A stretch of 64,000 bases of DNA from positions 118,990-182,989 of the IMG/VR virus record IMGVR_UViG_3300033146_003879; one strand, written 5' to 3'. The position numbers and the translations under genes are program-made. Source of the stretch: a virus. Its lineage: Duplodnaviria; Heunggongvirae; Uroviricota; Caudoviricetes. Below the pieces are notes generated by a model, which was not told the origin of the DNA, did no database searches, and was given only the letters and a program-made list of their open reading frames with translations. The stretch's first letter is position 1. The number at the start of each line of letters is the position of its first letter. Positions 5,231 to 59,322 of this stretch are shown here, piece after piece.

Positions 5231-5938
5231 CTATTGAGAGACGTATGTTACCATGGCATTTATGTCTCCGTTAACAACGACATAGGAGATATCGAAGTAC
5301 ACCATTCCTGCATTTATCATATGTACAGGAACACCTTCGACGAAGTCAAGAAGCTGATACTTTACGTGGTCGCAGTGTTCACTTGTAGTACGTGCTCTGT
5401 TCCCACAGATAGAGCAGACATCATATTCAACACCGCATCCCATAGATACGAGGATGCCTTTTTTCTGTTTGAGCTTCCGGTATATTGTCGGTGCCGCTTT
5501 CTTCTTTACGGAAAGAACCAACTCAACTCGATGTTGTTCTTCGTTGTAATTCGCATAATAGATGTCCCCAATACTCTTGCTCGGGTCGTCACTTTTGTGA
5601 AACATATAAACACTTCCCTTTTCCATGTAAGTAGGGGTAGCTGCTGGTAGTGTCTGTGTCTCTGACACAAATGGCTTAAACGGCTTCTCGAATACGGAAT
5701 CTCCATTATCGTTCTCACCAAACACTTCAAATGGAAATACCGCGAAGCAGAGCGCTGTGATGGCCCCTTCTCCTGCTGCCTTCTGTGCTTTCTCTACTTC
5801 TTTTATAAGGTATTCTGCGGTGGTCTTTGCTGCCTTTTTTATAAGGCCACATCCAATCTTGCCGTTACAAGTTACTGAGTCTATCACTGTTAGGTTGCTT
5901 GTTAGTGTCTTCTCTAGCATCAGTGCCTCCGTGAGCAT
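5231..5938 (-). CDS. hypothetical protein with cysteine cluster (CGVEYDVCSICG ... EHCDH); possible Zn-binding or prohead-protease-like, unproven
   Basis: 235-aa ORF. Cys/His cluster visible in the translation. Position is adjacent to the scaffolding-like gene. Confidence 0.4.
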   Translation of the reverse strand: MLTEALMLEKTLTSNLTVIDSVTCNGKIGCGLIKKAAKTTAEYLIKEVEKAQKAAGEGAITALCFAVFPFEVFGENDNGDSVFEKPFKPFVSETQTLPAATPTYMEKGSVYMFHKSDDPSKSIGDIYYANYNEEQHRVELVLSVKKKAAPTIYRKLKQKKGILVSMGCGVEYDVCSICGNRARTTSEHCDHVKYQLLDFVEGVPVHMINAGMVYFDISYVVVNGDINAMVTYVSQ

Positions 5939-9928: not shown

Positions 9929-11794
9929 TTATAGTAACGTGACTGCACACTCGTCTTTAATGATATTCTTCGGGAAAATTGACTCTGTTATAGGTAGTAT
10001 ATATTCTGTAGTATATAGTGCCCAGAGTGGCATAATATCATCTATGAAAGACAAGTCACTCAGAACGTGAATACCAGCTGTGGGGATACGTATTATTACC
10101 TTCAGGTGGGAGTTTTTGATGAGATCTTCCCAGATATAAGTATTGTATTCCTTTATTGTTACTCTATCTGGGAGAAGCTTATACTTCTCAGGAGATGTCG
10201 TTGTGAATACATCGTAGTTAGAATCTATGTCTCGTGTGAAGAAATCAAATGTTATTTGTTTCTGATCGGCACAGGGCGGCGGTGCTGTTGTGTATACCGA
10301 ATCGAGTGGAAAAAAAGAATCGGAGAAATCGTCCCTGACAAAGTAATCGCCGGGAGAAAATGTTGCAGTGTTACCGTCGAAATCAAGGTATGTTATTGCG
10401 GTGGCTGAGAGGGGTAGATGGAACACGTGGTACTCTTCACGGTGAAGCTGGTAGTCTGTTTGTGTTGGTAGTGTAGTAACGTCTCCTTTGAATATAAGGT
10501 TGCGGTAGCGCTCCCAACGCGTGCCGTCAGGTGCTACATAAAGAATGTCGCCCTTTACGTATGTCTGAGTATCTCCTCCCCGTTCTATCGGGTAGGATAA
10601 CACTATTGTGTCTGGTGTTACACGTAGGTAGTCTCCTGCTGCGTGAGGCGTCGCATCGAGGTCAAGGTCGCTAGGCACACTTGCTGTTCCAACATTATTG
10701 CGGAGCATTGCGTACTTGTAGTGCAGTGGTACTTCACCGGTTACATTTAATGTCGGTGTATACACACTAGCGGATACTGTTGTTGAAACCGGGGAATAGG
10801 GGTTTATTCGTACAAGGTGCTCACTGAATGTTGCTGGAGGAACACCTTCCTCAATAGTAACAACGGAGTGGAATGGGGTGTATACAGGAAGAGTTGCTCC
10901 GAGTAGTAGTATTCCATTATTAAACGGTATTGTGTTATCGAGTATGTATGTTTCTCTATCTGTCCTCACCTCTGTGTGGGTAGGACCTGGTGTTATTGAT
11001 ACAATAGTTTCTCCTTCATAAAGTGTTATAGGGAGTCCTATTATCGTATTTATAGATGCTTCCAGTGCGACCTTTGTTGTTCCGTGATAGTAGGTAAGCA
11101 TAAGCCCTACGATCTTTCTACGGTATTCTATTTCTGGCTCAATATCATTTATATCTCTGTAATATACCAGAGTTCCGTAGTCTCTGTAGAGAGGCCCTTC
11201 TTTAAACTCAATTCCCTGAAATAGGAATGATCCTGTGAGAACAGAGTAGGTCTTACCTGAGGGGCATACAATGTCACTGTGGGCCGCTCCCTTAATGGAC
11301 TCAATAGGGTCAACATCAAACCGCATGTAGTCTGTGAAACATGCGTAGTTTATGTCCTTTATCAGGAGAACCTCAGGAGCAAAATATCTATCTGTTACTT
11401 TTGAGACGTATTTTGTATCTTCGTAAAAAAGGTCGAACGATCCGAGGAAAGTAGAGAAACCACCAACCGGTTCATAGTGTTTCATAAGTACATTTCGCTC
11501 AATAAGGTATTCTCTGTCAACAGGAAGGAGGGTATCTTCGTCGTTGATGTTAACGAGTCTTCGTACTGACACGAACCGTACTGCAGCCGGACTTGTTATG
11601 TCCGCCAATTGAGGGTTAATACTGGCTTGCTCTGCGATTATCCCTTCAAGGATGTCATTCATAAGAAGGTTTCCCGCTTCAACAAAAGCAGCCTCCTTAT
11701 CGAAGGCGTACTTTATTACAGACCAGTAGAATGGCGTATTAACGGGTACGAGACTCATGTCTTGTATAATCATGTTACACTCCTGCTGGTACAA
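9929..11794 (-). CDS. hypothetical structural protein (621 aa)
   Basis: Long ORF in the structural block. Overlaps the next gene by about 20 nt, typical of operon packing. Confidence 0.5.
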   Translation of the reverse strand: MYQQECNMIIQDMSLVPVNTPFYWSVIKYAFDKEAAFVEAGNLLMNDILEGIIAEQASINPQLADITSPAAVRFVSVRRLVNINDEDTLLPVDREYLIERNVLMKHYEPVGGFSTFLGSFDLFYEDTKYVSKVTDRYFAPEVLLIKDINYACFTDYMRFDVDPIESIKGAAHSDIVCPSGKTYSVLTGSFLFQGIEFKEGPLYRDYGTLVYYRDINDIEPEIEYRRKIVGLMLTYYHGTTKVALEASINTIIGLPITLYEGETIVSITPGPTHTEVRTDRETYILDNTIPFNNGILLLGATLPVYTPFHSVVTIEEGVPPATFSEHLVRINPYSPVSTTVSASVYTPTLNVTGEVPLHYKYAMLRNNVGTASVPSDLDLDATPHAAGDYLRVTPDTIVLSYPIERGGDTQTYVKGDILYVAPDGTRWERYRNLIFKGDVTTLPTQTDYQLHREEYHVFHLPLSATAITYLDFDGNTATFSPGDYFVRDDFSDSFFPLDSVYTTAPPPCADQKQITFDFFTRDIDSNYDVFTTTSPEKYKLLPDRVTIKEYNTYIWEDLIKNSHLKVIIRIPTAGIHVLSDLSFIDDIMPLWALYTTEYILPITESIFPKNIIKDECAVTLL

Positions 11795-12286: not shown

Positions 12287-15200
12287 TTATGACCCCTTCT
12301 TGACTGTTGAATATATCTTAACATTACGCATGCGCTGTGTTATTACTACTTTTCCTGGGCGGACGGTGGTGCGTTCTTGGGAGGCGAACTCATCAGAGTT
12401 TTGTGCTGTTAACAGCCCGCTATTTACTGTGCACGCAAACTTATTTTCCGTGTCAGCGGAGTACATTATTGCGTCCTGTATTGTTGAGTAAGGAACTAGG
12501 TCAGCATCTGTATCGTGAAAATAGAGAGGTAGGTATCCTATCGATACCGTGATTGGCACTGATAGCCCTGGAATAGATCCAGCATCTGACCATTGTGTGT
12601 GGTCTGCTGCTGTGTCGCCTACTTTTATTGCAGCTCGTGTTATACCTGAGTAAGGTGCTGTAAAGTCATCTGACAAAACAGTAGGGTCGGTACCCAACAC
12701 TAAGCCGTGATCGTGTAGCACATCTACTAGATCATCGACTAGGTCTATTTCTAAGCTTATTCCTAATGATAGGTCAGCAAATGCATTTATTGGGGAGATC
12801 TCTATCTCGTGATCTAGGTTTAGTGGATCAGTTGCTGTGCTAGGGGTGTTGAGTTTTATGTCTACGGCGATCTGTTCGAACGTGAGTTCCCGCAAAACAC
12901 TATCCGACACAGCCATGGCTATTGTGTGTAGAGTTGCTTTCCCAGGGACAGGCGGTGTATACATGTCAGGGTTACTAACAAGCACATTGTTGTCTTCAAA
13001 CACAATGTCAGTTGCTGTTCTTGTGATTATGAGAGGTGATGACACATCAGGGTAGTAGGAGAGATCACTGAGTGTATCGTTCATGGTCATGGTTTCAAGG
13101 GTTGTTTCTCGGGTACCATCAACACTGGATATGGTAGGGTCAGCAAGCTGTAGTACGTGGAACTCTCCGCTACTATCCTGTACGGAGGCGTCGTACTGTT
13201 GTCTTATGAATGTTGCGCTGTAGTCTTTCGCCGCTTCTGCCAGAGGAGGGTAGGCTACTATATCTTTGTTCCTTCCGAGAGAATCATCTCTATCAGCAAC
13301 GTACTTGGTAAGTCCTAGGTCTAATACAGTCCTCTCGGTACCTTTATATAAGTTGGTTATGTCGACACGGGTCTCCCCTGCTGCGTATACACCCGGGGTG
13401 CTCCTTATTAAGGTTACTTTTTTTATGTAGTTTGCAGCATCTACGTTGAAATACTTACGGGAAACACCGGGGGATACCTCTGATACTGCGTATACAGGAA
13501 GTGTAATCATTGCGAATGGAAATACCTTTGTTTTGTTTGCAGTAGAAGTTGCCCCTGCGAGCTTTATTTTCGATAACAGCCCTAAACTTTGCGCAAAGGA
13601 ACCTGAACCTAGATCTGAATCTGGACTATCTATTTCACGATAATAAGTAGACATTCTATATTTTTCTGAAGTGGGGTTGGTGTCGGTATTAGGCACTGTG
13701 TTTAACTGTATTGGGTTAAATACAAAAGTGTCGGATGCGGAGGTGGGGTCAGTTGTAGCATCAGTCTTTGTGGCAATTATTGATGGGTTAAACAAAGCTA
13801 TGTGAGCTATGTCGTATTGGGGTGCGGATGTATAGGTTGCTGCCCTTGATGATTCTATTGCTGGGTAGAACTTCTCTGTTGTTGTTGTTGCTGTTATGTA
13901 ATCTCCGTAAGTCGTGCTTGTTAAGGACTCATATGAAATCCCGTACACAAGAGCTAGTATGTACTCAGCGGAGAACAGTACAGATCTGTTTTTCGCACAA
14001 TTACCTCTAGCGCTAGAACTGAGCTTCAGGTCAGTATAATAGTCAACATCTACTGTGAAGTTGTCCACCATCGCATCCGGTAATGATCTGTTTAATGTCC
14101 TCTTTAAGTAAGTTTGTACCAGAGATGTGCTGTAGGTTTTTCTTAAAAGTGTTCTGAATCTTGTGAATGTATCGATTGTTAGTGTGTCGTGCGCTGGAGG
14201 TGGGCTGTAGTCAGAAAGGCTCTCCAAGACGTGCTGTACGTTGATGTATGTGTCTATGTTTGTGGCGGCAGATGTGAATACAGTTCTCCGTAACAGTGAT
14301 GCCTCATTATATCTGCCAAATGCTCGCTGATCGTGGCCGTTGGTCCCATCCGATCCCGCTACAGCGGTAGTGTAAATAGAATTAACTGTAGCGTCAACCA
14401 CCAGGTCTCCTGCTTGTCCGCCGAGGCGTGCTCCGGATGATTTGTCGTTTATTGCTATTGTTGTAGCTTGCCCCATTGATAGATTGCTTAGGAGATCCGA
14501 TAAAACGACGTGCATTGACGCCTGAGGCTCGTGGGTTATAGATATTGTGTCTGATATATCTCCGAAATGTATGGAGTATCCTGTTGCGGTGTCTCCTGTG
14601 TGTTCTATTTTTGTTTCATTAACGCCGCCGTATATACGTTTTGTGGATCCCCCGAGAAATAAGTTCAGAGATGAGTATATTGACGAATACCCTGTAAACT
14701 GGTCTCCTACTAATCCATGTTCAGGGGACTCAAGTGCAGGTAGAGGTCTTCTCATAATCGCTTGTTGAGGGAGAGGGGTGAATGGAGGTAACCCTTCACC
14801 ACTATTGGTTGTTGTTATAGCTCCGTTCGTCCCTATTATTGTTCCACCAGATCTAAAGTTCCCTACATTAACGCCGGGATCTCTCACATTACCTATGTAT
14901 GTGCTGCGTTTTGTTGCTCCTAGTATGTCTGTCACAACATACGCTTTTGGTTCTGCCCCGTGGGCATTGGGAGTTATTATGTTTATGAAACCTGTTGGTA
15001 GTATTGCCCCGACATATACAGGTGTTGTTGGGCTAGGCGTCCCTAGTAACAAAGGGATGAGAGGCAGTGTGTATGTTGTTGGTGATATTCTTTTCCATCT
15101 ATCAACGTGTATATTGTTTAAGTCGCTCGCCAAATCCGTTACCTCAATAGAGAACCCAACAGCAGATACTGTCTCAGGGTTTATCAACAACTCGGTACGC

Positions 15201-17101
15201 TTAACTGAATCAGGGTACACAGAAGATCTTCTGTTTATCAGCTCATAAAGAGCGGTAAACATCTGATCAATATACACAAGACTATCTTTTCCTGGTATTG
15301 TTGTGGTAGCCTCGTCTTGTGGTACTACTGGCCCTAACATTGTTGGAAATAGGTCTTTGTATGGCGCCGATGGGGTACCTCCCCACTCCTCTATGGCGTC
15401 GTAGGTTACGTTTGATAAGCGGGTTGCACCACCCGAAAAGAAACTTCCTCCAGACCCCGTCGACATAACGATGCTCGTCTCCCCTGTATGGAGAAAGTAG
15501 TCGAGATAATCATCGAGGTTTATTACTGTTCCATCAAGGAATGTTATCTTTTTCTCAGTAACAGTAAACATAGGTAAGAATGTGTCCTTCATGTATGCTG
15601 TACCGTCGCCAGGGTCAGGTGCACCTGTGTTGTGGTACAGGTAAGGATTGTTCTTATGGGAAGGTTTGTAGATGTCCCAAACTGGTACTTTCAGGCTTGG
15701 GTCAAACGTAGGATCTAGTTCTGTTGTTCCAGGCGCCATATTTGCTATAGCGTGTCCTAGTGATGCTGGTATGAATGCAAATTGAGCACTGGATGATGAT
15801 CCGTTTAAGTATTCGAAGTTTGTGTTTCCGGTTGAGGTTACGGTAGGGGTGTCGAACATTGATTTTTGTACCCCTTCTCTAGCAACAACAAATCCATAAG
15901 TTCCTGTATTTATGAAGTTAGCGTCGTATTTGGGGTGACCGTTTATCTCAGTGCTTGTGAGTTCGCCTGACACATCCCCTCGAGAAAACAAGAAGGGGTG
16001 GTGTCTTCCGTACGTAGGAACATCACCGTCATCAAGAGGTAGTTGATCATCAAATGAAACAGGTCTACCCTCAAACACAGGAGGAAACGCCGATGCTCCA
16101 GGGATCTCTATTCGGACACTACGTGGTTTTATTGTGGCTATGTAAGGTTTTTCTTCTCGGTTCTTCATGAATGTCATGTTGAGAGGGGTGGTCAACAAGG
16201 TGGATGGTGGTACTACCTCAGGGAATATCTTAACGTGAAGCGGGAATAAACCGTCATTAAACGTGCGTGCTGACCCAGCTGTAACAGACCCTAGTGCAGA
16301 TAACAAGTCACCTACAGTCATACTTGCAATGTCACACACAATGCGAATTGTAGTATACCTCTTTTTATTGTCAATAAGAACAGGATCCTCAACAAACGTA
16401 CCGTGCTTGTCTGCCTCAGTATTGTGCTCAACGATAATCGAGATGTTGTGATGTACTGCGGTCGTAAATATATCAGGGTTAGCACCCCCCTCATCAACGT
16501 ACAACATAAGAACTGTTTCTGCGTCGAAAGGAGATGGTTCGTCAGGTGATAGAGGTATCGCATGGTAGTATTCACCGTAACCTCCGAGCCCGTAGTTAAG
16601 AATCAGGGTGTAAGCGTCAGCTGTGTCAATAGATCCTGAAGAGTCCCAGTTACTTGCTGCCGCAAATCGAACCGGAACATATTGTAAGAGACGGCTGCCA
16701 GGAACACTTGTTCCGATAACACCAGAAAGGTCTCCCGGTTTCCATACTCGGATATTCACATCGCGGTCTTTCTTGTAGTAAGGGCTTCCGTAGGTCGCTT
16801 CCGGTGGGGGAGGAACAGCCGCAGGATGTCCCACAGCAGTTGCGCTAGGTTCACTTTGAGCGCTCATATACAGTTGGATCTTATCGAGGAACAACCTATG
16901 CTCAAGGCTTGACACCTCACTTTGGTTAATCCCATGCATTAGGCTAACCATCCGAGAATAAGCAGAACTACCGTAGAGCTCCGATTGACGAACGGGGTCA
17001 CAGTCCTTGTAAAAAATACCGCTGTTCTTAATGTTGTTCTTTTTGTAATCGCGAGCCATGAGTCTCCTCCTTGTTGTCACATCGAAATTATAGTAGAACA
17101 A
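12287..17101 (-). CDS. giant structural protein (1604 aa)
   Basis: Uninterrupted 4.8-kb ORF. First gene of the minus-strand structural operon, downstream of an AT-rich divergent control region. Confidence 0.6.
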   Translation of the reverse strand: MFYYNFDVTTRRRLMARDYKKNNIKNSGIFYKDCDPVRQSELYGSSAYSRMVSLMHGINQSEVSSLEHRLFLDKIQLYMSAQSEPSATAVGHPAAVPPPPEATYGSPYYKKDRDVNIRVWKPGDLSGVIGTSVPGSRLLQYVPVRFAAASNWDSSGSIDTADAYTLILNYGLGGYGEYYHAIPLSPDEPSPFDAETVLMLYVDEGGANPDIFTTAVHHNISIIVEHNTEADKHGTFVEDPVLIDNKKRYTTIRIVCDIASMTVGDLLSALGSVTAGSARTFNDGLFPLHVKIFPEVVPPSTLLTTPLNMTFMKNREEKPYIATIKPRSVRIEIPGASAFPPVFEGRPVSFDDQLPLDDGDVPTYGRHHPFLFSRGDVSGELTSTEINGHPKYDANFINTGTYGFVVAREGVQKSMFDTPTVTSTGNTNFEYLNGSSSSAQFAFIPASLGHAIANMAPGTTELDPTFDPSLKVPVWDIYKPSHKNNPYLYHNTGAPDPGDGTAYMKDTFLPMFTVTEKKITFLDGTVINLDDYLDYFLHTGETSIVMSTGSGGSFFSGGATRLSNVTYDAIEEWGGTPSAPYKDLFPTMLGPVVPQDEATTTIPGKDSLVYIDQMFTALYELINRRSSVYPDSVKRTELLINPETVSAVGFSIEVTDLASDLNNIHVDRWKRISPTTYTLPLIPLLLGTPSPTTPVYVGAILPTGFINIITPNAHGAEPKAYVVTDILGATKRSTYIGNVRDPGVNVGNFRSGGTIIGTNGAITTTNSGEGLPPFTPLPQQAIMRRPLPALESPEHGLVGDQFTGYSSIYSSLNLFLGGSTKRIYGGVNETKIEHTGDTATGYSIHFGDISDTISITHEPQASMHVVLSDLLSNLSMGQATTIAINDKSSGARLGGQAGDLVVDATVNSIYTTAVAGSDGTNGHDQRAFGRYNEASLLRRTVFTSAATNIDTYINVQHVLESLSDYSPPPAHDTLTIDTFTRFRTLLRKTYSTSLVQTYLKRTLNRSLPDAMVDNFTVDVDYYTDLKLSSSARGNCAKNRSVLFSAEYILALVYGISYESLTSTTYGDYITATTTTEKFYPAIESSRAATYTSAPQYDIAHIALFNPSIIATKTDATTDPTSASDTFVFNPIQLNTVPNTDTNPTSEKYRMSTYYREIDSPDSDLGSGSFAQSLGLLSKIKLAGATSTANKTKVFPFAMITLPVYAVSEVSPGVSRKYFNVDAANYIKKVTLIRSTPGVYAAGETRVDITNLYKGTERTVLDLGLTKYVADRDDSLGRNKDIVAYPPLAEAAKDYSATFIRQQYDASVQDSSGEFHVLQLADPTISSVDGTRETTLETMTMNDTLSDLSYYPDVSSPLIITRTATDIVFEDNNVLVSNPDMYTPPVPGKATLHTIAMAVSDSVLRELTFEQIAVDIKLNTPSTATDPLNLDHEIEISPINAFADLSLGISLEIDLVDDLVDVLHDHGLVLGTDPTVLSDDFTAPYSGITRAAIKVGDTAADHTQWSDAGSIPGLSVPITVSIGYLPLYFHDTDADLVPYSTIQDAIMYSADTENKFACTVNSGLLTAQNSDEFASQERTTVRPGKVVITQRMRNVKIYSTVKKGS

Positions 17102-24158: not shown

Positions 24159-24499
24159 TGGTGGAGGCGGCGGGAATCGAACCCGCGTCCTAAAAACCTT
24201 CAAGATAGATACTACATGTTTAGTCCGTCTTTACTAAAATCTTCGGCGCCAACGGACAGGCCCCTCGAAGTTTCCTACGCTAAAGTTTTCGTGGCATCTC
24301 CCACATAGAAAGGATCAACCCTTAGTCTCACAGTTGTGCGCCCCAATTGGTGTCGTGAGCACCCCTCCAATAGGACGGCAGCTTATGCTGCTATGAGTTC
24401 AGTTTTTGCGTCTCTGAACGTGCCGCTTTTTACGAGGCCCGCGGCGCCTCGACATGCATCTATTCTCTCCGCGAATCCAGTCGAAACCAGGTCGCCCCC
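24159..24499 (-). ncRNA. ssrA: tmRNA (ssrA-like), about 341 nt, phage-encoded
   Basis: Minus strand reads 5' GGGGGCGACCUGGUUUCGACUGGAUUCG ... GGACGCGGGUUCGAUUCCCGCCGCCUCCACCA 3'. The 7-bp acceptor stem (GGGGGCG / CGCCUCC) carries a G3.U pair. T-arm GCGGG-UUCGAUU-CCCGC with terminal CCA. Internal putative tag frame ends ...ACU GAA CUC AUA GCA GCA UAA (TELIAA*). Confidence 0.8.
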
Positions 24500-26215: not shown

Positions 26216-27079
26216 CTACCTCCATCCATTCGTCAGCGTCCCATCTTCATAGATTACGCCGTACTTGTTATTAACTGCTCCTGCGAGCGCCTTGTATGCC
26301 ACTTTCACTCCATCCATGACAGATGCTTTCAGCGTCTCTTCACACATAAAGCATGATCTCTTTAACAGCAACGGGGTCTTCATCCCAGGAAACAACCGGT
26401 TCGTGTCAATATGTTTCTGACACCCACTAAAGTAAGGGCTCCCGAGCTTAATGTCAAACACGTCCTCAAATGAGACGAAATACTCTTCTCCGTGCTGGAT
26501 CTCACTCAGCTTTATTTCACTGAATCCCATTGCGTCGTAGTGCCGGAGGCACGCTTCAATATCCTCTCTCTTATAGAGAAAAGGCTTCACGATGTTTATA
26601 TTGATCCGGATTTTCTCCTTGTGCGGCAAGCTGTTGTAAAACGCCTGCCTGTCATACTCAGACTTTGTTCTTCGTATCGAGTCTGCGACAGCTTCGTCAT
26701 GATGTTGCACACTCAGGTTGATACCGTCACACATGTCAATGAGTCGCTCAAACATCTCACGCTCATCATGGCATATCTTCGGGACCGCCGTCGTCACAAA
26801 CACTTTGAGTTTCGTGTTCGCTTTAATGAGGATAACACAATCAAGCAACTCTTTCAGATACAGAGCCGGTTCTCCTCCAAGAAACAACACATCATCATAC
26901 CCTTCAGCATTGTTCGCAACCGTATCAGCGATAGCATAGATGTCCGGTTTGTTAATACCGAACCCCGCATAGTGCGTATCGATGCAATGTGCACACTTGT
27001 TGTCACATGCACTTGTGAAGTGTATGTCGAAACTGTTGTATGTGCCGTCGCAGCTGTTTTTTACGAATTGGTTCTTCAT
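26216..27079 (-). CDS. radical SAM enzyme (CxxxCxxC), viperin-like features
   Basis: HFTSACDNKCAHC close to the N-terminus, LFLGGEPAL glycine-rich SAM motif, C-terminal ...TNGWR. Compare viperin HFTRQCNYKCGFC, SGGEPFL and its terminal Trp. Confidence 0.6.
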   Translation of the reverse strand: MKNQFVKNSCDGTYNSFDIHFTSACDNKCAHCIDTHYAGFGINKPDIYAIADTVANNAEGYDDVLFLGGEPALYLKELLDCVILIKANTKLKVFVTTAVPKICHDEREMFERLIDMCDGINLSVQHHDEAVADSIRRTKSEYDRQAFYNSLPHKEKIRININIVKPFLYKREDIEACLRHYDAMGFSEIKLSEIQHGEEYFVSFEDVFDIKLGSPYFSGCQKHIDTNRLFPGMKTPLLLKRSCFMCEETLKASVMDGVKVAYKALAGAVNNKYGVIYEDGTLTNGWR

Positions 27080-29907: not shown

Positions 29908-29992
29908 TATGAGAAAATAGAGGCAGTTATCCAACAGCCCGTAAAACCCGGTCTCTGTAGGCCAGGCCCGACAAAGGCCGGGATATAAGGGC

Positions 29993-30367
29993 TTACTGAT
30001 TCTTAATGTATGTCTTGATGACTTCGAGCGGTGCGCCGCCAGAAGACGTAACGTAATAAGACGGGGACCATAATTTCTTGTGCCGTCTTAATTCCGGGTA
30101 TAAAGCTCTGAGCTTTTTGCTTGTTGGCCCCTTAACTGCCTGCACTATAGAGGAGATTGACTCTGTCGAAGGGTATTCAATAAGGAGGTGGACGTGATCT
30201 AAATCGCCGTTACATTCCTCAAGCGTGATCCCCTTCTTCTTGAACGCCTGTCTTGCATAATATGCGAAGTCTCCAAGTATTCTCGGAGAAAGCACCTTTC
30301 TCCTATACTTCGTTACCAATACGAGGTGTGCATGCAAGCTGCTTATGTTTGTTCTTGACTTCCTCAT
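29993..30367 (-). CDS. tnpA: IS200/IS605 Y1 (HUH) transposase TnpA
   Basis: LHAHLVLVTKYRRKVL ... DHVHLLIEYP (HuH) ... LWSPSYYVTS (catalytic Tyr). Confidence 0.85.
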   Translation of the reverse strand: MRKSRTNISSLHAHLVLVTKYRRKVLSPRILGDFAYYARQAFKKKGITLEECNGDLDHVHLLIEYPSTESISSIVQAVKGPTSKKLRALYPELRRHKKLWSPSYYVTSSGGAPLEVIKTYIKNQ

Positions 30368-30389
30368 AACCCTAAGTATACTCTTTTGT

Positions 30390-31508
30390 ATGAAAGTGTC
30401 AAGAGCATATAAATACCGCCTTTACCCTACGCGAGAACAAGAGATTAAGTTGTCTCAGTTCGTTGGAAACAATAGATATCTCTGGAACTTCGTTCTATCC
30501 GCTCTCGAAGGCAAGAAGTGGGACCGATTCGCTGTTTCCAAACAACTTCCTTCACTTAAGTCTGAAATACCATTCCTTAAAGAATCTCCGTCTCAAGCGT
30601 TTCAACAATTGTTAATTGATATGGATGCTGCATTTAAGAGCTTCTTTCGGAAGAAACACGGATATCCGAAGTTTAAGAAACGCGGTATGCACGACTCTTT
30701 TAGAATACCGGTTGTGAAGTCCCCTGAATCTATAAACAAGAATAGCTGCGTCTGGATACCAAAATTGGGTTTTGTGGAACTGCGTTTGTCGCGTGAGGTG
30801 AGAGGAGAAGCGAAGTCTATCACTGTGTCTCGGAGAGCGGGAAAATGGTTTGTCTCAATATTGACGAAAAGCGAGATGCAGGAAACAGGCGGAAAGACAG
30901 GAAATAGTGTAGGAATTGATCTCGGCGTTAAACACTTCGCGACAACGTCGGGCGGAAAGCATATACATGCTCCAGAGGAAAGAGTGCGCTATTTAGAGAA
31001 GAGAATAGAGCGCATGCAGAGGAAAGTCAGTAGAGCGAAGAAAGGATCAAGCAACAGAAGCAAGTTGCGTCTTAAATTAAGTAGACTCCACTTAACTCTC
31101 GCGAATGTGAAAGAAGACTTCTTGCACAAGGTGAGCACACAGTTAATCAAGAACCACGATTTACTTGTGCTCGAAGACCTTGGTGTAAAGGAGATGACAG
31201 AAGCAGGAGCGAGAAAAGCGAAGTTAAATAGAGCAATCTTGCGTCAAGGTTGGTATAAATTTAGGACTTTACTTGAGTATAAGAGTATGTGGTATGGCTG
31301 TGCCGTAGTGTTCGTCCCGCCTCAATTCACGAGTCAGCGCTGTAGCGAATGCGGGAATATAAACGCAGCAAACAGAAAGACACAATCGTCATTTAAATGC
31401 CTTTCGTGTGGCCATACTGAAAACGCTGATATAAACGCAGCTAAGAACATTTTCACCGTCGGGCAGACGGGTAGAGCCTTTGGAGACGCCGCGCTAGCGG
31501 GTCGATGA
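30390..31508 (+). CDS. tnpB: TnpB (OrfB, RuvC-like, RNA-guided nuclease family)
   Basis: N-terminus KVSRAYKYRLYPTREQ, GIDLGVKHFATTSGG (RuvC-I), C-terminal zinc finger CSECG...CLSCGH, DINAAKNI. Confidence 0.85.
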   Translation: MKVSRAYKYRLYPTREQEIKLSQFVGNNRYLWNFVLSALEGKKWDRFAVSKQLPSLKSEIPFLKESPSQAFQQLLIDMDAAFKSFFRKKHGYPKFKKRGMHDSFRIPVVKSPESINKNSCVWIPKLGFVELRLSREVRGEAKSITVSRRAGKWFVSILTKSEMQETGGKTGNSVGIDLGVKHFATTSGGKHIHAPEERVRYLEKRIERMQRKVSRAKKGSSNRSKLRLKLSRLHLTLANVKEDFLHKVSTQLIKNHDLLVLEDLGVKEMTEAGARKAKLNRAILRQGWYKFRTLLEYKSMWYGCAVVFVPPQFTSQRCSECGNINAANRKTQSSFKCLSCGHTENADINAAKNIFTVGQTGRAFGDAALAGR

Positions 31509-31526
31509 ATTAGGAATCCCGGTCTT

Positions 31527-32180
31527 TCAAGGCCGGGAGGATGTCAAGACGTTGAAACCCATCTCAATCAACTTTACGAGATGTTCTGGGCTGTGCCCGA
31601 CATTAAGTGTATAGGGGCCTCCACCGACAGTGTAATCCAACATAACGCTGGAGTCTCCCTCATTGAAGCGTAGTTTACCAAACTTCGCAATCATGATTCC
31701 TGGGAACCAACTCTCAATAATCTTTTTCTCATGCTCTTTGATGTCGGACAGGAGCCTACTGCCCATTTTAACCCTACAAGGTTCACCGCAGTTTACCATT
31801 CTATCCTCCCCAAATACATCGCATATTTCATACACGATTTGATTACTACCGTTAAACCGAGACACAGGAAGCTTTCTAGCCACCATCTTATCCTGGTTAT
31901 GCCACACAGAACCTCTTGGAGACAGTGCTACAAATCGCGTTTCCCAGTCTTTAACCTTATCAAGGTAGTGTTTATAGTGCTCCGGGGAAATATCATATGA
32001 GATATCAGTTATTTCATTGCTTGCTGCTATATCAGACAGTGCCTGCATAGCGACTTCATGCTGCCCTACATTCCCGACAGGAATATAGATTGGACTAAAG
32101 TGCTTTTTGTCTTCCCAGTCTTTCTGGGAGACTCTCTTAATCGATTCGATTTGTTCTTTGCTGAGACTTTCTTTAACCAC
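31527..32180 (-). CDS. hypothetical protein (217 aa) next to the RNA ligase
   Basis: ORF. No clear phosphoesterase or kinase motifs seen. Confidence 0.4.
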   Translation of the reverse strand: MVKESLSKEQIESIKRVSQKDWEDKKHFSPIYIPVGNVGQHEVAMQALSDIAASNEITDISYDISPEHYKHYLDKVKDWETRFVALSPRGSVWHNQDKMVARKLPVSRFNGSNQIVYEICDVFGEDRMVNCGEPCRVKMGSRLLSDIKEHEKKIIESWFPGIMIAKFGKLRFNEGDSSVMLDYTVGGGPYTLNVGHSPEHLVKLIEMGFNVLTSSRP

Positions 32181-32598
32181 TCTTCTCCTCCCATTTTCTC
32201 AACTGTTTCATCAAACTTCCATCAACATCAAGGCGTCCGTCACCCATGGGATTTCCAAAACTGAACCACCCACCATCGACGGTACGAGTAAATGTTAGCG
32301 GGGTATTTTCTTCATCATCCAGATGACCATATACTAGCACGTCAGTTTCCTTTGCATACAATCCCGAGCACTGGTCAACCTCTTGTTTCCACAGCTCTCT
32401 CAGATCCTTTCGCGCGGTATTAAAGGAAGCAACGGTTTGTATATAGGCCCGGTTGTGCCGGGTCATTTTGACCTTTCCGTCGTCGAAGAAGTCATACTCC
32501 TCCCCTACCAACGGGACAGGCATTAATTTTCTAACTCCCATAGTGTTCCCCTCCATCTCCGTGGTTAGTAACAGCCGCTCTAATACCCTCTGCGACAC
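32173..32598 (-). CDS. hypothetical protein (141 aa); part of it is duplicated at 34156-34400
   Basis: PLVGEEYDFFDDGKVKMT...SGLYAKETDVLVYGHLDDEE recurs in the downstream ORFs. Confidence 0.4.
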   Translation of the reverse strand: MSQRVLERLLLTTEMEGNTMGVRKLMPVPLVGEEYDFFDDGKVKMTRHNRAYIQTVASFNTARKDLRELWKQEVDQCSGLYAKETDVLVYGHLDDEENTPLTFTRTVDGGWFSFGNPMGDGRLDVDGSLMKQLRKWEEKSG

Positions 32599-33511
32599 TT
32601 CCGATAGCTATAACACCATCGATAAGGAGCATGCCGAGATGAATTAGTGTTTTAACGCTATCATGCTGTACCCCAGACACAGGTAAAGAAGGGTTAACCT
32701 CTTTCCCTGACACCGCGAGCTTCCCATCGTCTGCCGCAGAGAATTCAACATCAACAAGAATATCTTTGACACCCTCTCGAACAGAGTCAAGAACAGCAGG
32801 ATCTTTGATAAACAACTCAACATCCTTTCTTGTAGCGGGAACAGGCTCCATATCCCACTCTTCAATGATATTCCTCTCCGGCTTTATCTTAACCATGATA
32901 CGCTTACCACTTCTGGTGAGCATACCAAGAGGCGCCTTCAATACGACACCTTCTGCGGGATACTCTTTGTTCTCCGCAATTAACGACTTGAAGTCGTTGT
33001 TGACCAGGGCATCTGCTTCGGCAAGACTCATGTTTCCGAGAAACGGAACAACAAGAATCCCTATACGGGCCGCAATGTTTTCTATATCTTTTCTCTGCAA
33101 CCACCAGCCCCCTACACGAATATCAAACAGAATGAAGGACACATCTTTCTTTATGTAGTTCCCTCCTTTCTGAATCTTCACACCATACCCTTCTCCATAG
33201 AGACAGACGACCTGTCCACCCTCAAGAGTAAACCCTTTCTTAAGAGTCTCCGGAGTAAACAACTCATGCAGCTTCTTGTCAAGGTGCCCCGGCAAGATAG
33301 CTTTATCCGTCTTACCCCGGATATCGACTTTCTCTCCATCCCAGATAACACGAATGTTCGTGCCGTCTATTTTCTCTGTTGCTTCCCACAGGGCGTTCTC
33401 GAGTACCTCAAATTCAGGCATTGCGTACGCGCCTCTTATGAGAGGCTTATTTTTCATATGCATAGCCCTCTTCCACAAAGAGTTTATCTTTGTATACTTT
33501 CCTCCGTTCAT
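32531..33511 (-). CDS. ATP-dependent RNA ligase, Rnl2-like
   Basis: Motif I EKIDGTN (compare T4 Rnl2 EKIHGTN), motif IV EGVVLK, motif V IMVKIKPE. Start MNGG is preceded by GGAGGGAGAAGG. Confidence 0.7.
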   Translation of the reverse strand: MNGGKYTKINSLWKRAMHMKNKPLIRGAYAMPEFEVLENALWEATEKIDGTNIRVIWDGEKVDIRGKTDKAILPGHLDKKLHELFTPETLKKGFTLEGGQVVCLYGEGYGVKIQKGGNYIKKDVSFILFDIRVGGWWLQRKDIENIAARIGILVVPFLGNMSLAEADALVNNDFKSLIAENKEYPAEGVVLKAPLGMLTRSGKRIMVKIKPERNIIEEWDMEPVPATRKDVELFIKDPAVLDSVREGVKDILVDVEFSAADDGKLAVSGKEVNPSLPVSGVQHDSVKTLIHLGMLLIDGVIAIGSVAEGIRAAVTNHGDGGEHYGS

Positions 33512-33524
33512 CCTTCTCCCTCCT

Positions 33525-33806
33525 CTAAACACTATCAATAAACTTGAGAAGCTCCTCTTTCTTTTTCTTGACCTCTGGAGTCAGTTCCACCTCGTGTCTC
33601 CTGATCCTCGGGAACACACCGTACTCATCTTCATAGATACTATACATTATACCCAGACCTACAGCAGGCTCTACGTATCCAAACAGATGAGAAGGCAGGG
33701 ATAACGTCACTTTCCCAAACCTAACGGAAACGAACTCGTCACTGTACGAAACTATTACACCTGACTTCTCTGCTATCAGGTTAATCATCTGCTTTCCCGT
33801 CCACAA
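33525..33806 (-). CDS. hypothetical protein (93 aa)
   Basis: ORF. Confidence 0.35.
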   Translation of the reverse strand: MWTGKQMINLIAEKSGVIVSYSDEFVSVRFGKVTLSLPSHLFGYVEPAVGLGIMYSIYEDEYGVFPRIRRHEVELTPEVKKKKEELLKFIDSV

Positions 33807-34050
33807 CAGTAGCTCTATCGCCCGCTACATAACACTCCCTCCCCACGAGTTCCGGGTATACATCCTTCAGCAATCTCCACGCCTTCGCCCTCAACCGCCC
33901 TTGTTCTTTCGCCAAGGCTATTATCTTTTTCGTAGTAAAGGGGAAACGGCATAGTCTCTCCAAAGTCACCCTACACCCTGTTGCCTCATCAAACAGCAGC
34001 ATAATATCTTGTGGGACTACCCACTCTTGTTTCTTTTCCTTAGCACTCAT
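33781..34050 (-). CDS. hypothetical protein (89 aa)
   Basis: ORF. Confidence 0.35.
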   Translation of the reverse strand: MSAKEKKQEWVVPQDIMLLFDEATGCRVTLERLCRFPFTTKKIIALAKEQGRLRAKAWRLLKDVYPELVGRECYVAGDRATVVDGKADD

Positions 34051-34170
34051 GTACTTCTCCTCCTAATAAGATTATTCTGTTCTTCTAAACCCCCGACTGG
34101 ATTGTGAGCTCAATTATCCTCTCCGCTCCTCCTACAGCCACCAATACCTCTAGTACTATTCCTCCCTTAT

Positions 34171-34378
34171 GTCCTTCCTCGCGGTGTTAAAGGAGGTAAC
34201 GGTTTGTATATAGACCTGCCTGAGGCTTGTCATTTTGCCCTCCCCGTCGTCGAAGAAGTCATACTCTTCCCCCACCAACGGGATAGGTTTCCTCATCCTC
34301 AAAGCGTCCGTATACGAACACGTCAGTTTCCTTTGCATACAACCCTGAGCACCGGCCAACCTCTTGTTTCCTCCTGTT
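34171..34378. repeat. about 200-bp duplicated and circularly permuted copy of 32300-32520
   Basis: cgtcgtcgaagaagtcatactc..ccaacggga, cggtttgtatata and cgtcagtttcctttgcatacaa blocks all recur, but in permuted order. Confidence 0.7.
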
Positions 34379-34792
34379 CCGCTCGGGCTTTATTTTACCC
34401 ATCTCCTCTCCGCGAGAAGTGTCTCGGTTCTCTTCTGCCACGAGCGTCACCGTAACATCCATTGGGCCAAGATCACGCAAATAACCACCGGACTCGGGGC
34501 CAGTATTCTTGACAACAAAGAACACTTTTTCCTCCCCTGCTATTTCGATTAGACGCTCTTTCGTTATTTCGATAACACGGAAGCCGGCGTCTACGTAGAC
34601 ATGCGTGACCTGAGGCAGTACATCAACAAGTTCATTATTCCCAGCCCTAAGCATGCGCACTTGCTCTCTCTTTACTTTTAATTCAGATTCGGTCGCCGCG
34701 AGCTCCACGTTAGACTTATTTAACGCGTCTGCAAGAAAAGCAACAAAAGTGGCAGCGATCAGCACTGCGATTACAAATAGGATGTATATCAT
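34259..34792 (-). CDS. hypothetical membrane-anchored coiled-coil protein (carries the duplicated fragment in its C-terminus)
   Basis: N-terminal TM helix MIYILFVIAVLIAATFVAFL and a helical region. C-terminus is SGLYAKETDVFVYGRFEDEE. Confidence 0.4.
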   Translation of the reverse strand: MIYILFVIAVLIAATFVAFLADALNKSNVELAATESELKVKREQVRMLRAGNNELVDVLPQVTHVYVDAGFRVIEITKERLIEIAGEEKVFFVVKNTGPESGGYLRDLGPMDVTVTLVAEENRDTSRGEEMGKIKPERNRRKQEVGRCSGLYAKETDVFVYGRFEDEETYPVGGGRV

Positions 34793-35313
34793 AGCAATCC
34801 TTCCTCCATCATCCTGTCCACCACCTCTTTGAGGTAGTAGTGTGTTTGTAGCAACGCGGTTACGTCAGTAAACTCCCTGATAGCAGTGAATAGAGCATCT
34901 TCCTCCTGATCAGTCACTTTTCTAATAGACGCCACCTTTCCCATGTCCCCTACTCTTTGCGCCATGAGGAATTGGTCTGCATTCTGTGCCTCTGCCTGCC
35001 TCCTCGCAATTGTCTTGAGTATATCTTGTGTTAGCTCCGGGCGAGTATCCCTGACAAAAACATCAGGGTAGTCCCGAATAAGAACACGCTGCCCAAGGGC
35101 CGCCTGACATATATGTATGCCATCGGCCCAATTCCTCCCAACATCTTCTCGGAGGACAGGGAGTCGCGCATACTTGTTATGCGCTTCGATGAGCAGGTCC
35201 ATTACCTCCCGCTCCTCCTCGGTAAAGGGGTCTTTACTAGTCATAATTTTCTCCCCCGTCAACAATAACATCGAGTTCTTTAGTTGTAACAGTACCACCT
35301 TCGCGGACGGCAT
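34789..35313 (-). CDS. hypothetical protein (174 aa)
   Basis: ORF. Confidence 0.4.
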   Translation of the reverse strand: MPSAKVVLLQLKNSMLLLTGEKIMTSKDPFTEEEREVMDLLIEAHNKYARLPVLREDVGRNWADGIHICQAALGQRVLIRDYPDVFVRDTRPELTQDILKTIARRQAEAQNADQFLMAQRVGDMGKVASIRKVTDQEEDALFTAIREFTDVTALLQTHYYLKEVVDRMMEEGLL

Positions 35314-35623
35314 AACTTAACTTCCGCGTAAGAGCCTCACGCAGTATCTCATCTCTACCAATTGGGACCTCGACTCCTGAGATTGTCATAAATAATCGAC
35401 ACTCCCTACTTTCAATCAAGGAAATAAGTTTATCGTTGCCTGCCTTCACGCGATACAGCGTAAACGCAGCTTCCTCTTTATCCTCTTGCAGCCTTTTTAT
35501 GTAGTCACTAAGGTCTGCTAGTGTTTTGTTTGCCTCCCACAGTAGTAGTGAGGTAACGGTTGCTATTATTGTCATACACAAAGCGAGCATTGGCATAAAT
35601 ATATTAAATAAATCAACAGGCAT
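35237..35623 (-). CDS. hypothetical membrane-anchored protein (128 aa)
   Basis: N-terminal helix FMPMLALCMTIIATVTSLLLW. Confidence 0.4.
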   Translation of the reverse strand: MPVDLFNIFMPMLALCMTIIATVTSLLLWEANKTLADLSDYIKRLQEDKEEAAFTLYRVKAGNDKLISLIESRECRLFMTISGVEVPIGRDEILREALTRKLSYAVREGGTVTTKELDVIVDGGENYD

Positions 35624-43807: not shown

Positions 43808-46442
<2,635 letters not shown>

Positions 46443-58224: not shown

Positions 58225-59322
58225 TTACTTATTAGACTTACGTCTATTACAGCTCTTACAAAGCACCTGGCAGTTAGCGGAGATGGTTTTCCCACCTTCG
58301 CTCCACGGTGTAATGTGGTCAGCCTCCATGTCCTCTATGATAAACTTCTTCTTGCACATAGAACATTTCTTTTTCTGTTTCTCATACACAGCTATTTTCA
58401 TAGCAGGTGTGAACGCACGGATTGATAAGTAGCGCTCATCTCCGGTAAGAACGTAGGAGTACATGCCGCGTTTTGCTGTGACGTCATCATCAAGTATTAG
58501 TCTAGCGATCTCGACTTCGAGGGCATCGGTGTCATAGGTGTTATCCTTGAACGCATTGTACAGGTAGCCCCACTCAACACCCTTCATGAATTTTGTTCTG
58601 CCCTTATTGTATTTCACTGGAAAAGTATCCTCTACCCATGTCACTACCGATTGAAAATACCTCCACAGTGCTCCTGCGTTTTGTTCTCCTTGGTGTTTTG
58701 CCATGTACGCTTCGATATTATCATCCGATATCCATCGAATCGCAGTCTCGAGATAATCTTGCCGAATAGCGGATCCAGTCAGGTACACACTTCCGATACG
58801 GTGTGCTGTGCACCCGGTCTTGCTGAAGCGCGCTTTAGCAGCAGTTACCCACGGCCCAGAATAAACAGCGTTGCGCAACTCTTGATCAGTAAGCTTCATA
58901 CCTGAGATATTAACCGTTTTAAACCACTCAAGCTTGTCGCTGTCCCCACCCTCACAGAAGTACACCATTAACTCGTAATTAAGAACCTCTTCTTTCTTAT
59001 CGGATGGGAGGTTGCTAAACAACATACCCTCAACAGAGAAGTCATCGTTAACATACTGGCATATAGACAACGTGCGCTGCTGACCATCTATTATCTCGAA
59101 TGATTCTTCTGAATTCACTGCCCAGTAGATAGCACTGAGCGGGAACCCTTTCATAACAGTGTCAATAACAGCAGCGCGCTGCTTATCATTATACACAAAC
59201 TCTCTCTGATAAGGAGGCCTGATGTCAAGTTTTCCATCTAACCCAACAACACCCCCTTCGTCAGCATCCTTGAATCCATGAACAACATCTCTTACTGTAA
59301 CTCTTTTTAATTCAACTCGCAC
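58225..59322 (-). CDS. DUF262 (ParB-like, DGQQR) + HNH nuclease fusion, GmrSD / type-IV-restriction-like
   Basis: N-terminal EIIDGQQRTLSI. C-terminal CSMCKKKF...ADHITPWSEGGKT...NCQVLCKSCNRRKSN (HNH). Confidence 0.65.
   Translation of the reverse strand: MRVELKRVTVRDVVHGFKDADEGGVVGLDGKLDIRPPYQREFVYNDKQRAAVIDTVMKGFPLSAIYWAVNSEESFEIIDGQQRTLSICQYVNDDFSVEGMLFSNLPSDKKEEVLNYELMVYFCEGGDSDKLEWFKTVNISGMKLTDQELRNAVYSGPWVTAAKARFSKTGCTAHRIGSVYLTGSAIRQDYLETAIRWISDDNIEAYMAKHQGEQNAGALWRYFQSVVTWVEDTFPVKYNKGRTKFMKGVEWGYLYNAFKDNTYDTDALEVEIARLILDDDVTAKRGMYSYVLTGDERYLSIRAFTPAMKIAVYEKQKKKCSMCKKKFIIEDMEADHITPWSEGGKTISANCQVLCKSCNRRKSNK

Follow-up and report, generated by a model that had tools for sequence, protein, structure and literature searches.

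The locus examined here raises the question of whether a small ligase gene and the two co-oriented genes that follow it act together on broken RNA during infection. It occupies positions 31527-33511 (minus strand) of a 64-kb stretch of DNA (positions 118,990 to 182,989 of IMG/VR virus record IMGVR_UViG_3300033146_003879), which we refer to as the window; the complete contig measures 183 kb (182,989 bp), and window-wide statements are limited to those 64 kb. The element is probably a large phage, as suggested by its gene style, by genes of the YopX, HNH and endonuclease VII types, and by the viral provenance of its relatives. In the classic counter-defence against host nucleases that cut tRNA, sealing is carried out by phage RNA ligases, and a preliminary description of this DNA had interpreted the block as a possible RNA-repair module built around an Rnl2-family ligase.

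The answer that we favor is tentative, with a probability of roughly 0.45: an intact ATP-dependent, RNA-type ligase from a clade without accessory domains, coupled to a member of a protein family that tends to associate with RNA ligases, would act on broken RNA during infection. A role in RNA repair is plausible and partly supported by the comparisons described below. These establish how the genes are laid out, that the motifs are intact, to which families the proteins belong and with what limits, the fold class of the 122-aa protein, and the counts of neighboring genes; from them we infer RNA as the substrate, cooperation between the ligase and its small neighbor, and a function in counter-defence.

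Organization of the three-gene block

As previously described, three overlapping, co-oriented open reading frames (ORFs) are present on the minus strand at 31527-33511 in the ORF list (Table 1). The real start of the middle gene is likely to be the ATG at 32541, which gives a protein of 122 amino acids (aa) and agrees with the gene call in a public protein collection. The ligase stop codon overlaps the start of the 122-aa gene by 11 nt, the 122-aa and 217-aa genes overlap by 8 nt, and strong Shine-Dalgarno sites of the GGAGG type precede all three. Judged from this layout, the genes form a predicted co-translated block in which the 217-aa gene is translationally coupled to the 122-aa gene. Promoter and terminator scans gave results at or near shuffled expectation and define no operon, and a megablast search with 31000-35500 against 50,697 phage genomes returned no match. 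As a separate observation, the strong GGAGG sites within 31527-33538 argue against a Bacteroidota host, though the closest relatives of the ligase are Prevotellaceae-associated sequences.

Table 1 Features of the locus and of the surrounding window (positions in window coordinates)
Feature	Position	Strand	Remarks
Ligase gene	32531..33511	-	326 aa; ATG start with AGGAGGGAGAAGG upstream
Nucleotidyltransferase (adenylyltransferase) domain, aa 1-212	32876..33511	-	Motifs I, III, IIIa, IV and V
Motif I, EKIDGTN (E46-K47-I-D-G-T-N52)	33356..33376	-	Family alignment and T4 Rnl2 profile alignment
Motif IV, EGVVLK (aa 187-192), through motif V, VKIK (aa 207-210)	32882..32953	-	Alignments
C-terminal extension of 114 aa (aa 213-326)	32534..32875	-	Follows K210-P-E; absent from all relatives examined
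Middle ORF	32173..32598	-	141 aa counted from GTG at 32598
122-aa gene (probable real product of the 141-aa ORF)	32173..32541	-	ATG at 32541; GGAGGGG Shine-Dalgarno site upstream
217-aa gene	31527..32180	-	GTG start with GGGAGGAG upstream
Scrambled, degenerate relic of a second ligase-partner cassette	34162..34402	-	Inside and after ORF 34259..34792, 1.5 kb upstream of the block
NAD-dependent DNA ligase LigA, complete	43808-45796	-	phrog_3869, E = 2e-171
Transfer-messenger RNA (tmRNA) gene, full-length	24159-24499	-	ARAGORN tag AKTELIAA*; Rfam RF00023, 173.6 bits against a cut-off of 47
IS200/IS605-type element	~29935-31545	TnpA - / TnpB +	Y1 transposase TnpA (29993-30367) divergent from TnpB (30345-31508)

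The ligase gene encodes an intact catalytic domain

The 326-aa protein matches the Pfam family PF09414 (RNA_ligase) over aa 42-209 (E = 1.5e-16, 61.5 bits; gathering cut-off 27) and phrog_548, named 'RNA ligase' (E = 5.9e-19). Its nucleotidyltransferase (NTase) motifs align in order with those of T4 Rnl2, with motif I placed opposite EKIHGTN of the T4 enzyme. Motif III corresponds to G106-E107-G-Y-G, motif IIIa to F129-D130, motif IV to E187-G-V-V-L-K192 and motif V to K208-I-K210; K47, D49, G50, E107, F129, D130, E187, K208 and K210 are invariant columns in a 14-sequence family alignment. Motifs I, IV and V had been recognized from the start, and the alignment confirms them together with the lysines of motifs I and V (K47, K208 and K210), the first of which is the predicted acceptor of AMP. 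Codon usage of the domain is coding-like (log-odds +0.26 in frame). The gene is thus predicted to specify a ligase that is ATP-dependent, intact and a member of the RNA-ligase (PF09414) superfamily.

The nearest solved structure to the family profile is the N-domain of T4 Rnl2 (E = 5e-11), followed by NgrRnl (Rnl5) and Pab1020 (Rnl3), both at 3e-3. The window ligase resembles the T4 Rnl2 N-domain (PDB 1s68, 2hvq) in having its catalytic domain at the N-terminus and in motifs III (GE), IIIa (FD), IV (EGxVxK) and V (KxK), whereas overall sequence identity is low and both the motif I histidine and the C-terminal α-helical domain of T4 Rnl2 are absent. Rnl2 and DraRnl carry a signature histidine at the second position past the motif I lysine (KxHG; PMC1807946). 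In the window ligase the motif instead reads KIDG, with no Rnl2-type histidine, and the aspartate two residues past K47 (D49) is invariant across the clade. Against the Rnl2 equivalog model of NCBIfam, TIGR02307, the protein scores 20.4 bits, far below the cut-off of 197.15. A helical C-domain of the Rnl2 type was not found, as the relatives end just past motif V and the extension of the window protein has no match among Pfam families or PDB sequences; neither was the N-terminal OB-like module of Rnl5 enzymes (DraRnl/NgrRnl), as the catalytic domain begins at about residue 5 and PF21189 and TIGR02306 gave no match. On these sequence criteria the window ligase is not a true Rnl2, and the label 'Rnl2-family' that it had been given goes too far.

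A clade of stand-alone nucleotidyltransferase domains

A search of 5.8 billion cluster representatives retrieved more than 7000 homologues of the ligase at E ≤ 0.001. The best 120 homologues listed are 209-255 aa long and cover only the first ~63-64% of the window protein, ending 2-16 residues past motif V (consensus KIKTxDF). Similarly, across 76 loci taken from viral contigs and other sources, the ligase ORFs span 204-307 aa, mostly 204-248, and their median tail beyond the profile end is none. Because the relatives stop directly after motif V, with no tail at the median, we regard the clade, on sequence grounds, as a stand-alone NTase domain of about 215 aa. Over aa 5-210 the window ligase is 40-56% identical to hundreds of its members and has 51 invariant columns in common with them.

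In GenBank, members of this clade carry the label 'RNA ligase' in crAss-like phages (IAS virus, cr116_1), Prevotella phages and ~40 Streptomyces phages. These ~215-aa proteins, among them those of IAS virus, cr116_1 (QOR59384.1) and the Streptomyces Stanwilliamsviridae phages (for example TunaTartare gp208), are 33-56% identical to the window ligase over aa 5-210 and have the invariant residues and an N-terminal Y-x-K-I ... R segment in common with it. They differ in length, in that the window ligase continues for 114 residues beyond the point at which they finish.

T4 Rnl2 deprived of its C-domain can self-adenylylate and seal a pre-adenylylated nick, but cannot recognize or adenylylate a nick (PMC1807946). 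The present clade is very abundant, extends to crAss-like gut phages and consists of the catalytic domain only. Rnl2, Rnl5 and DNA ligases depend on an additional domain to recognize nicks and to carry out 5'-adenylylation; with no such domain in this clade, another element must do that job.

Some neighborhoods of the clade support an RNA-repair setting, in that RtcB, Rnl1-like ligases and metallophosphoesterases occasionally occur beside it. An RtcB gene directly follows the NTase-only ligase in one locus (L065:3622-4899) and a gene for an Rnl1-like ligase does so in another (L048:6899-8026), so that some phages keep two RNA ligases of different classes adjacent to each other; metallophosphoesterases lie within 6 kb of NTase-only ligases in about nine loci. 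We also observed that in six crAss-like loci (L035, L037, L039 and related ones, including L174 of cr116_1 at 5723-5926) a 64-aa gene resembling HicA-type toxins overlaps the stop codon of the NTase-only ligase; the cr116_1 copy is annotated 'mRNAse / HicA toxin'.

A C-terminal extension specific to the window ligase

The window ligase is the longest of 77 clade ORFs owing to its C-terminal extension. In the ligase frame the extension has a codon-usage log-odds of +0.39 (+0.49 and +0.29 for its two halves), against an average of 0.24 among long window genes, and both alternative frames score below zero, which indicates real coding sequence rather than read-through junk. It contains a hydrophobic stretch at aa 288-314 (32570-32650; Kyte-Doolittle 19-residue maximum 2.0). 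No match to the extension was found in Pfam, PDB sequences, viral contigs (pattern scan) or the fetched loci, and the window holds no paralogue. The other length outlier of the clade, the ligase of L042, bears a tail of ~90 aa unrelated to the window extension; taken together, the two cases suggest that C-terminal add-ons arise sporadically in this clade.

The 122-aa protein belongs to a widespread family

A word-based search with the 122-aa protein identified seven relatives at 35-52% identity, and a profile of these seven expanded the family to 541 clusters at 50% identity, of which 395 have E ≤ 1e-10. Across 157 representatives the family signature comprises Y-x-F-D-D-G-K, R, L-Y-A-x-E-T-D-Y-F, F-x-R-T, G-G-W-F-S and G-R-L-D-V, each conserved at 75-99%, and the window protein carries all of these motifs. 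None of the libraries searched has a name for the family. An AlphaFold (AF2) model of the window protein (predicted local distance difference test score, pLDDT, 90.2; predicted template-modelling score, pTM, 0.83) has a small β-barrel and two helices, and Foldseek comparison of this model with the PDB and BFVD gave no match at E ≤ 0.001. A confident model that matches no deposited fold indicates that the protein is not a kinase, phosphatase or 2H phosphoesterase of known fold.

We considered and rejected the idea that the family represents a detached ligase domain. Its fused forms carry heterogeneous regions of no known kind, and ligases, RtcB, kinases and phosphoesterases are all absent from them. 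In one member, P0229, the fused region has a weak match to Pol-β NTases.

RNA ligases in the neighborhoods of the 122-aa family

After dereplication, 52 genomic contexts of the family (418 kb in total) were available, nine of which have an RNA ligase within 5 kb: the window, L005, L002-4, L006-8, L116, L115, L204, L089/91/92 and L217. A scan of 80 viral family loci with the ligase-clade profile had found a single ligase, the Rnl5-type enzyme of L115, and later screens of family loci added RtcB, Rnl1-like and Rnl5-like ligases. Four ligase classes are represented (NTase-only, Rnl5-like, Rnl1-like and RtcB). In L005 the family gene begins 19 nt after an NTase-only ligase gene, and in L002-4 it stands between a metallophosphoesterase gene and that of a 530-aa Rnl5-like ligase (PHA02142 OB domain; motifs KVHGT, GE, EGIVIRK and KLK). 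RtcB lies 1.9 kb upstream of the family gene in L006-8 and 1.3 kb downstream of it in L116 (PF01139, E = 4e-61). L115 places the family gene 1.7 kb upstream of an Rnl5-type ligase, with a metallophosphoesterase and an AAA_33 kinase next in line after that ligase. Rnl1-type ligases are found at 3.8 kb in L204 and at 1.9 kb in L089/91/92, and in L217 a metallophosphoesterase gene is directly upstream of the family gene, with a kinase and an Rnl1-like ligase 3 kb downstream. A metallophosphoesterase also adjoins the family gene in L134 and is near it in L122. No tRNA genes were found near the ligase-linked family loci.

To place these counts against a background, we used four ligase queries in 2.3 Gb of INPHARED, which returned 683, 615, 65 and 1095 records, or about 1.07 per Mb. 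At that density 0.45 contexts with a ligase would be expected (Poisson P ~1e-9, or 5e-4 and 0.04 if the background were five-fold or ten-fold higher), and the observed proximity is ~20 times this crude background, a rough figure inasmuch as the background stems from a different, redundant collection and the ligases were screened with ad hoc queries. The enrichment of RNA ligases near the 122-aa family is therefore suggestive.

There is a precedent for interpreting such a pattern. For a family with a Pol-β fold, a role in RNA repair was proposed purely from its recurrent linkage to several RNA ligase classes unrelated to one another, RtcB as well as 5'-phosphate ligases (PMC7824862, PMC12776372), and the 122-aa family displays the same pattern. 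It differs from that precedent in being a β-barrel with no recognized enzymatic motif, in its weaker linkage and in comprising viral and metagenomic sequences only. As an observation apart from this question, the 90-kb metagenome contig of L204, which bears a family gene and an Rnl1-type ligase, also encodes a full-length homologue of ribosomal protein L9 (L204:7962-8408, plus strand; PF01281, E = 2e-21; PF03948, E = 2e-26).

A scrambled second copy of the ligase-partner pair

Upstream of the block, the minus strand contains a relic in which a 26-nt piece of ligase motif V is followed by the middle of the 122-aa gene and then by the 5' part of that gene. Positions 34402-34377 correspond to 32896-32871 (22/26 nt) and encode G-K-I-K-P-E-R-N, compared with V-K-I-K-P-E-R-N in the ligase, while 34371-34279 matches 32390-32299 and 34287-34162 matches 32520-32395, at 82-90% identity. 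The internal junction falls at a 9-nt microhomology, CCTATCCCG. The profile of the 122-aa family matches both relic ORFs (E = 6.5e-10 and 1e-7), and a 177-aa ORF (34259-34792) ends in relic-derived codons. Since the ligase 3' end and the partner gene are linked in this second copy too, the pair evidently moved as a unit, by duplication or exchange, before illegitimate recombination scrambled it. Immediately on the upstream side of the relic, a 174-aa ORF (34789-35313, minus strand) matches over its aa 28-86 a 67-position PHROG (phrog_13916, E = 2e-10) named 'DNA ligase', a label that may be spurious given that neither Pfam nor NCBIfam supports it.

The 217-aa protein and the question of healing enzymes

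Phage RNA ligases typically act together with a polynucleotide kinase/phosphatase (Pnkp) that heals the cut ends, and the preliminary description had noted that neither protein flanking the ligase shows a Pnkp signature. This is borne out: searches of Pfam, PHROGs, NCBIfam, PADLOC and PDB sequences, as well as motif expressions, detected no kinase, phosphatase or 2H signature in either. The 217-aa protein retrieved only itself from the 5.8 billion cluster representatives, matched nothing in Pfam, PHROGs, NCBIfam or PADLOC, and had no hit among PDB sequences at E ≤ 10. Regular expressions for Walker A, HAD, metallophosphoesterase and paired H-x-T/S motifs did not find any of these in it. Its codon usage is coding-like (+0.17). 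The check for a kinase, phosphatase or 2H fold proposed earlier thus came out clearly for the 122-aa protein, the model of which has no such fold, and less so for the 217-aa protein, which bears no such signature in sequence and whose single-sequence AlphaFold model reaches a pLDDT of only 35. The last codons and the stop of the 217-aa gene lie inside the right-end hairpin (31518-31538) of the adjoining IS605-type element, so the C-terminus of the protein may have been altered by the insertion.

In comparison with Pnkp-ligase systems (T4 Pnkp with Rnl1, and the kinase-metallophosphoesterase-ligase type of Clostridium thermocellum), the block has the ligase component in common, whereas the kinase and phosphatase of those systems are found neither in the block nor in the 58 other window ORFs scanned. 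Two family loci elsewhere, L115 and L217, do combine a ligase, a metallophosphoesterase and an AAA_33-type kinase, as in Pnkp-ligase systems. PADLOC defence models had no match.

A possible role in RNA repair

Under the reading that we favor, K47 of motif I would be adenylylated by ATP, the AMP would be passed to a 5'-phosphate end, and attack by a 3'-OH would seal the break. The most likely substrate would be broken RNA, whether a tRNA, another RNA that is nicked in the course of infection, or a duplex whose 3'-OH strand is RNA; the Rnl2-like catalytic domain argues for this, as does the occasional position of clade members beside RtcB, Rnl1-type ligases and metallophosphoesterases. Substrate recognition may be contributed by the 114-aa extension, by the 122-aa β-barrel protein, or by both, and the healing enzymes (5' kinase and 2',3'-phosphatase) would be supplied by the host or by another part of the 183-kb element.

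The 122-aa family, in turn, may constitute an accessory factor that associates with RNA ligases and either holds or marks broken RNA ends or blocks a host nuclease. Because it occurs beside both RtcB, which acts on 3'-phosphate ends, and ligases that act on 5'-phosphate ends, it more probably acts on a common substrate or threat than as a domain or subunit of one particular ligase. A functional model for such a part is offered by archease, a small stand-alone protein that is encoded beside the RNA ligase RtcB and boosts its catalysis; the likeness would be one of role, as the two have no sequence or fold similarity and Pfam gives no archease match.

A bolder proposal, which we put forward at low odds, is that the 122-aa protein represents a new class of accessory proteins for RNA repair, specific to phages, that serves mechanistically unrelated ligases (NTase-only, Rnl5, Rnl1 and RtcB) by presenting ends or neutralizing a nuclease, and that here, perhaps together with the extension, it gives recognition in trans. 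If true, such a class would explain how more than 7000 'domain-less' ligases can act. The family is in any case a testable candidate for one of the missing parts of RNA repair in phages, much as RlaP was before its characterization.

Alternative explanations

Several observations weigh against the RNA-repair reading, in addition to the roughness of the enrichment figure. Among 80 viral ligase loci, not one has a family member within 6 kb, the majority of family loci lack a ligase in their vicinity, and the gene that precedes P0123, which at 52% identity is the nearest relative of the 122-aa protein, does not encode a ligase; no fusion of a family member to a ligase was found among the 157 representatives. 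A Pfam scan of the 58 other window ORFs detected no Pnkp, kinase, phosphatase, HAD, 2H, RtcB or RlaP. The usual neighbors of the ligase clade are genes of replication and nucleotide metabolism (PolA, ThyX, dUTPase-like and endonuclease VII), and tight packing with overlapping genes and Shine-Dalgarno sites is general in the window. In the literature, we found neither a biochemical study of the ligase clade nor biochemical data for the 122-aa family. A conserved operon of ligase and 122-aa gene was accordingly rejected as an interpretation, the adjacency being general to neither family. What stands of the RNA-repair module first suggested for this block is thus a modest comparative link between the 122-aa protein and RNA ligases or repair cassettes; what does not stand is any general pairing of the two genes.

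The explanation that competes best, although we hold it to be unlikely, is that the genes are merely neighbors in a densely packed array, that the ligase acts on its own or relies on healing enzymes encoded at a distance, that the 122-aa and 217-aa proteins are accessory products unrelated to it, and that the proximity of the family to ligases reflects shared, variable accessory islands of large phages; the locus would then be one more unannotated accessory gene array. It would account for the restriction of adjacency between family gene and NTase-only ligase to the window and L005, for the 43 of 52 family contexts in which no ligase was detected within 5 kb, for the largest family clade (29 loci), which adjoins an AAA-type ATPase-like protein and small genes of no known function, and for an overlapping arrangement that is usual in the window. 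It fits less well with nine independent contexts and four ligase classes, far above the crude background, three of which directly adjoin a ligase and three a metallophosphoesterase, with the family gene sandwiched by phosphoesterase and ligase in L002-4, and with the relic, in which the ligase-partner pair is linked in a second copy.

That the ligase instead serves DNA metabolism, sealing DNA, RNA-primed or RNA-DNA hybrid nicks in replication, recombination or repair, seems to us improbable. KxDG in motif I is classical for DNA ligases and Rnl1, as opposed to KxHG of Rnl2 (PMC1807946), the protein has a weak match to the DNA-ligase family PF01068 (E = 0.003), its top single-sequence PDB matches are named 'ATP dependent DNA ligase', and in crAss-like and Streptomyces phages the genes around the clade include those for PolA, dUTPase, ThyX and endonuclease VII. 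Profile comparison, however, places the ligase much nearer to the catalytic domain of T4 Rnl2 than to any DNA ligase, and PF09414 outscores PF01068 by 61.5 to 17.8 bits. The OB domain on which ATP-dependent DNA ligases rely for adenylylation (PMC1807946) is missing from the protein, and members of its clade occur directly beside RtcB and Rnl1-type RNA ligases. Moreover, a full NAD-dependent DNA ligase is already present on the element, which is thus predicted to carry two ligases of different cofactor classes, and this separate LigA argues that DNA replication does not depend on the small ligase.

Finally, we consider it highly improbable that the locus is decaying and the ligase non-functional, its extension having arisen by a rearrangement in which the native stop was lost or a remnant became fused to the gene: the scrambled relic 1.5 kb upstream with its microhomology junctions, the IS605-type element that abuts the block and overlaps the 217-aa stop, and an extension without relatives would fit that history, but the catalytic residues are all intact, the extension read in the ligase frame equals or betters bona fide genes in codon usage, and all three genes have strong ribosome-binding sites.

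Other features of the window

No tRNA genes and no SmpB gene were found in the window, and no virion gene was recognized in it. The IS605-type element has imperfect palindromes, CCCGGTCT..GGCCGGG, at both ends, and a weak HgcC-like RNA match at 31483-31560 fits an omega-RNA region; its nearest TnpB among 185,579 reference genomes is 41% identical, which is uninformative on the host. Three large ORFs have no PHROG match (4-4761, plus strand, 1585 aa; 9929-11794, minus strand, 621 aa; 12287-17101, minus strand, 1604 aa), and the 621-aa and 1604-aa ORFs had no tblastn match in the 50,697 phage genomes of INPHARED. Pfam matches in the 58 other ORFs include an EcoRI-type adenine methylase (E = 1.9e-127), DUF5662, GmrSD_N, Band_7/SPFH, the N-domain of a MazZ-like dATP/dGTP diphosphohydrolase, Cpn10/GroES, a RyR domain, MYG1 exonuclease, an Rv2179c-like 3'-5' exoribonuclease and YopX. 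A radical SAM ORF is located at 26216-27079 and an HNH ORF at 58225-59322.

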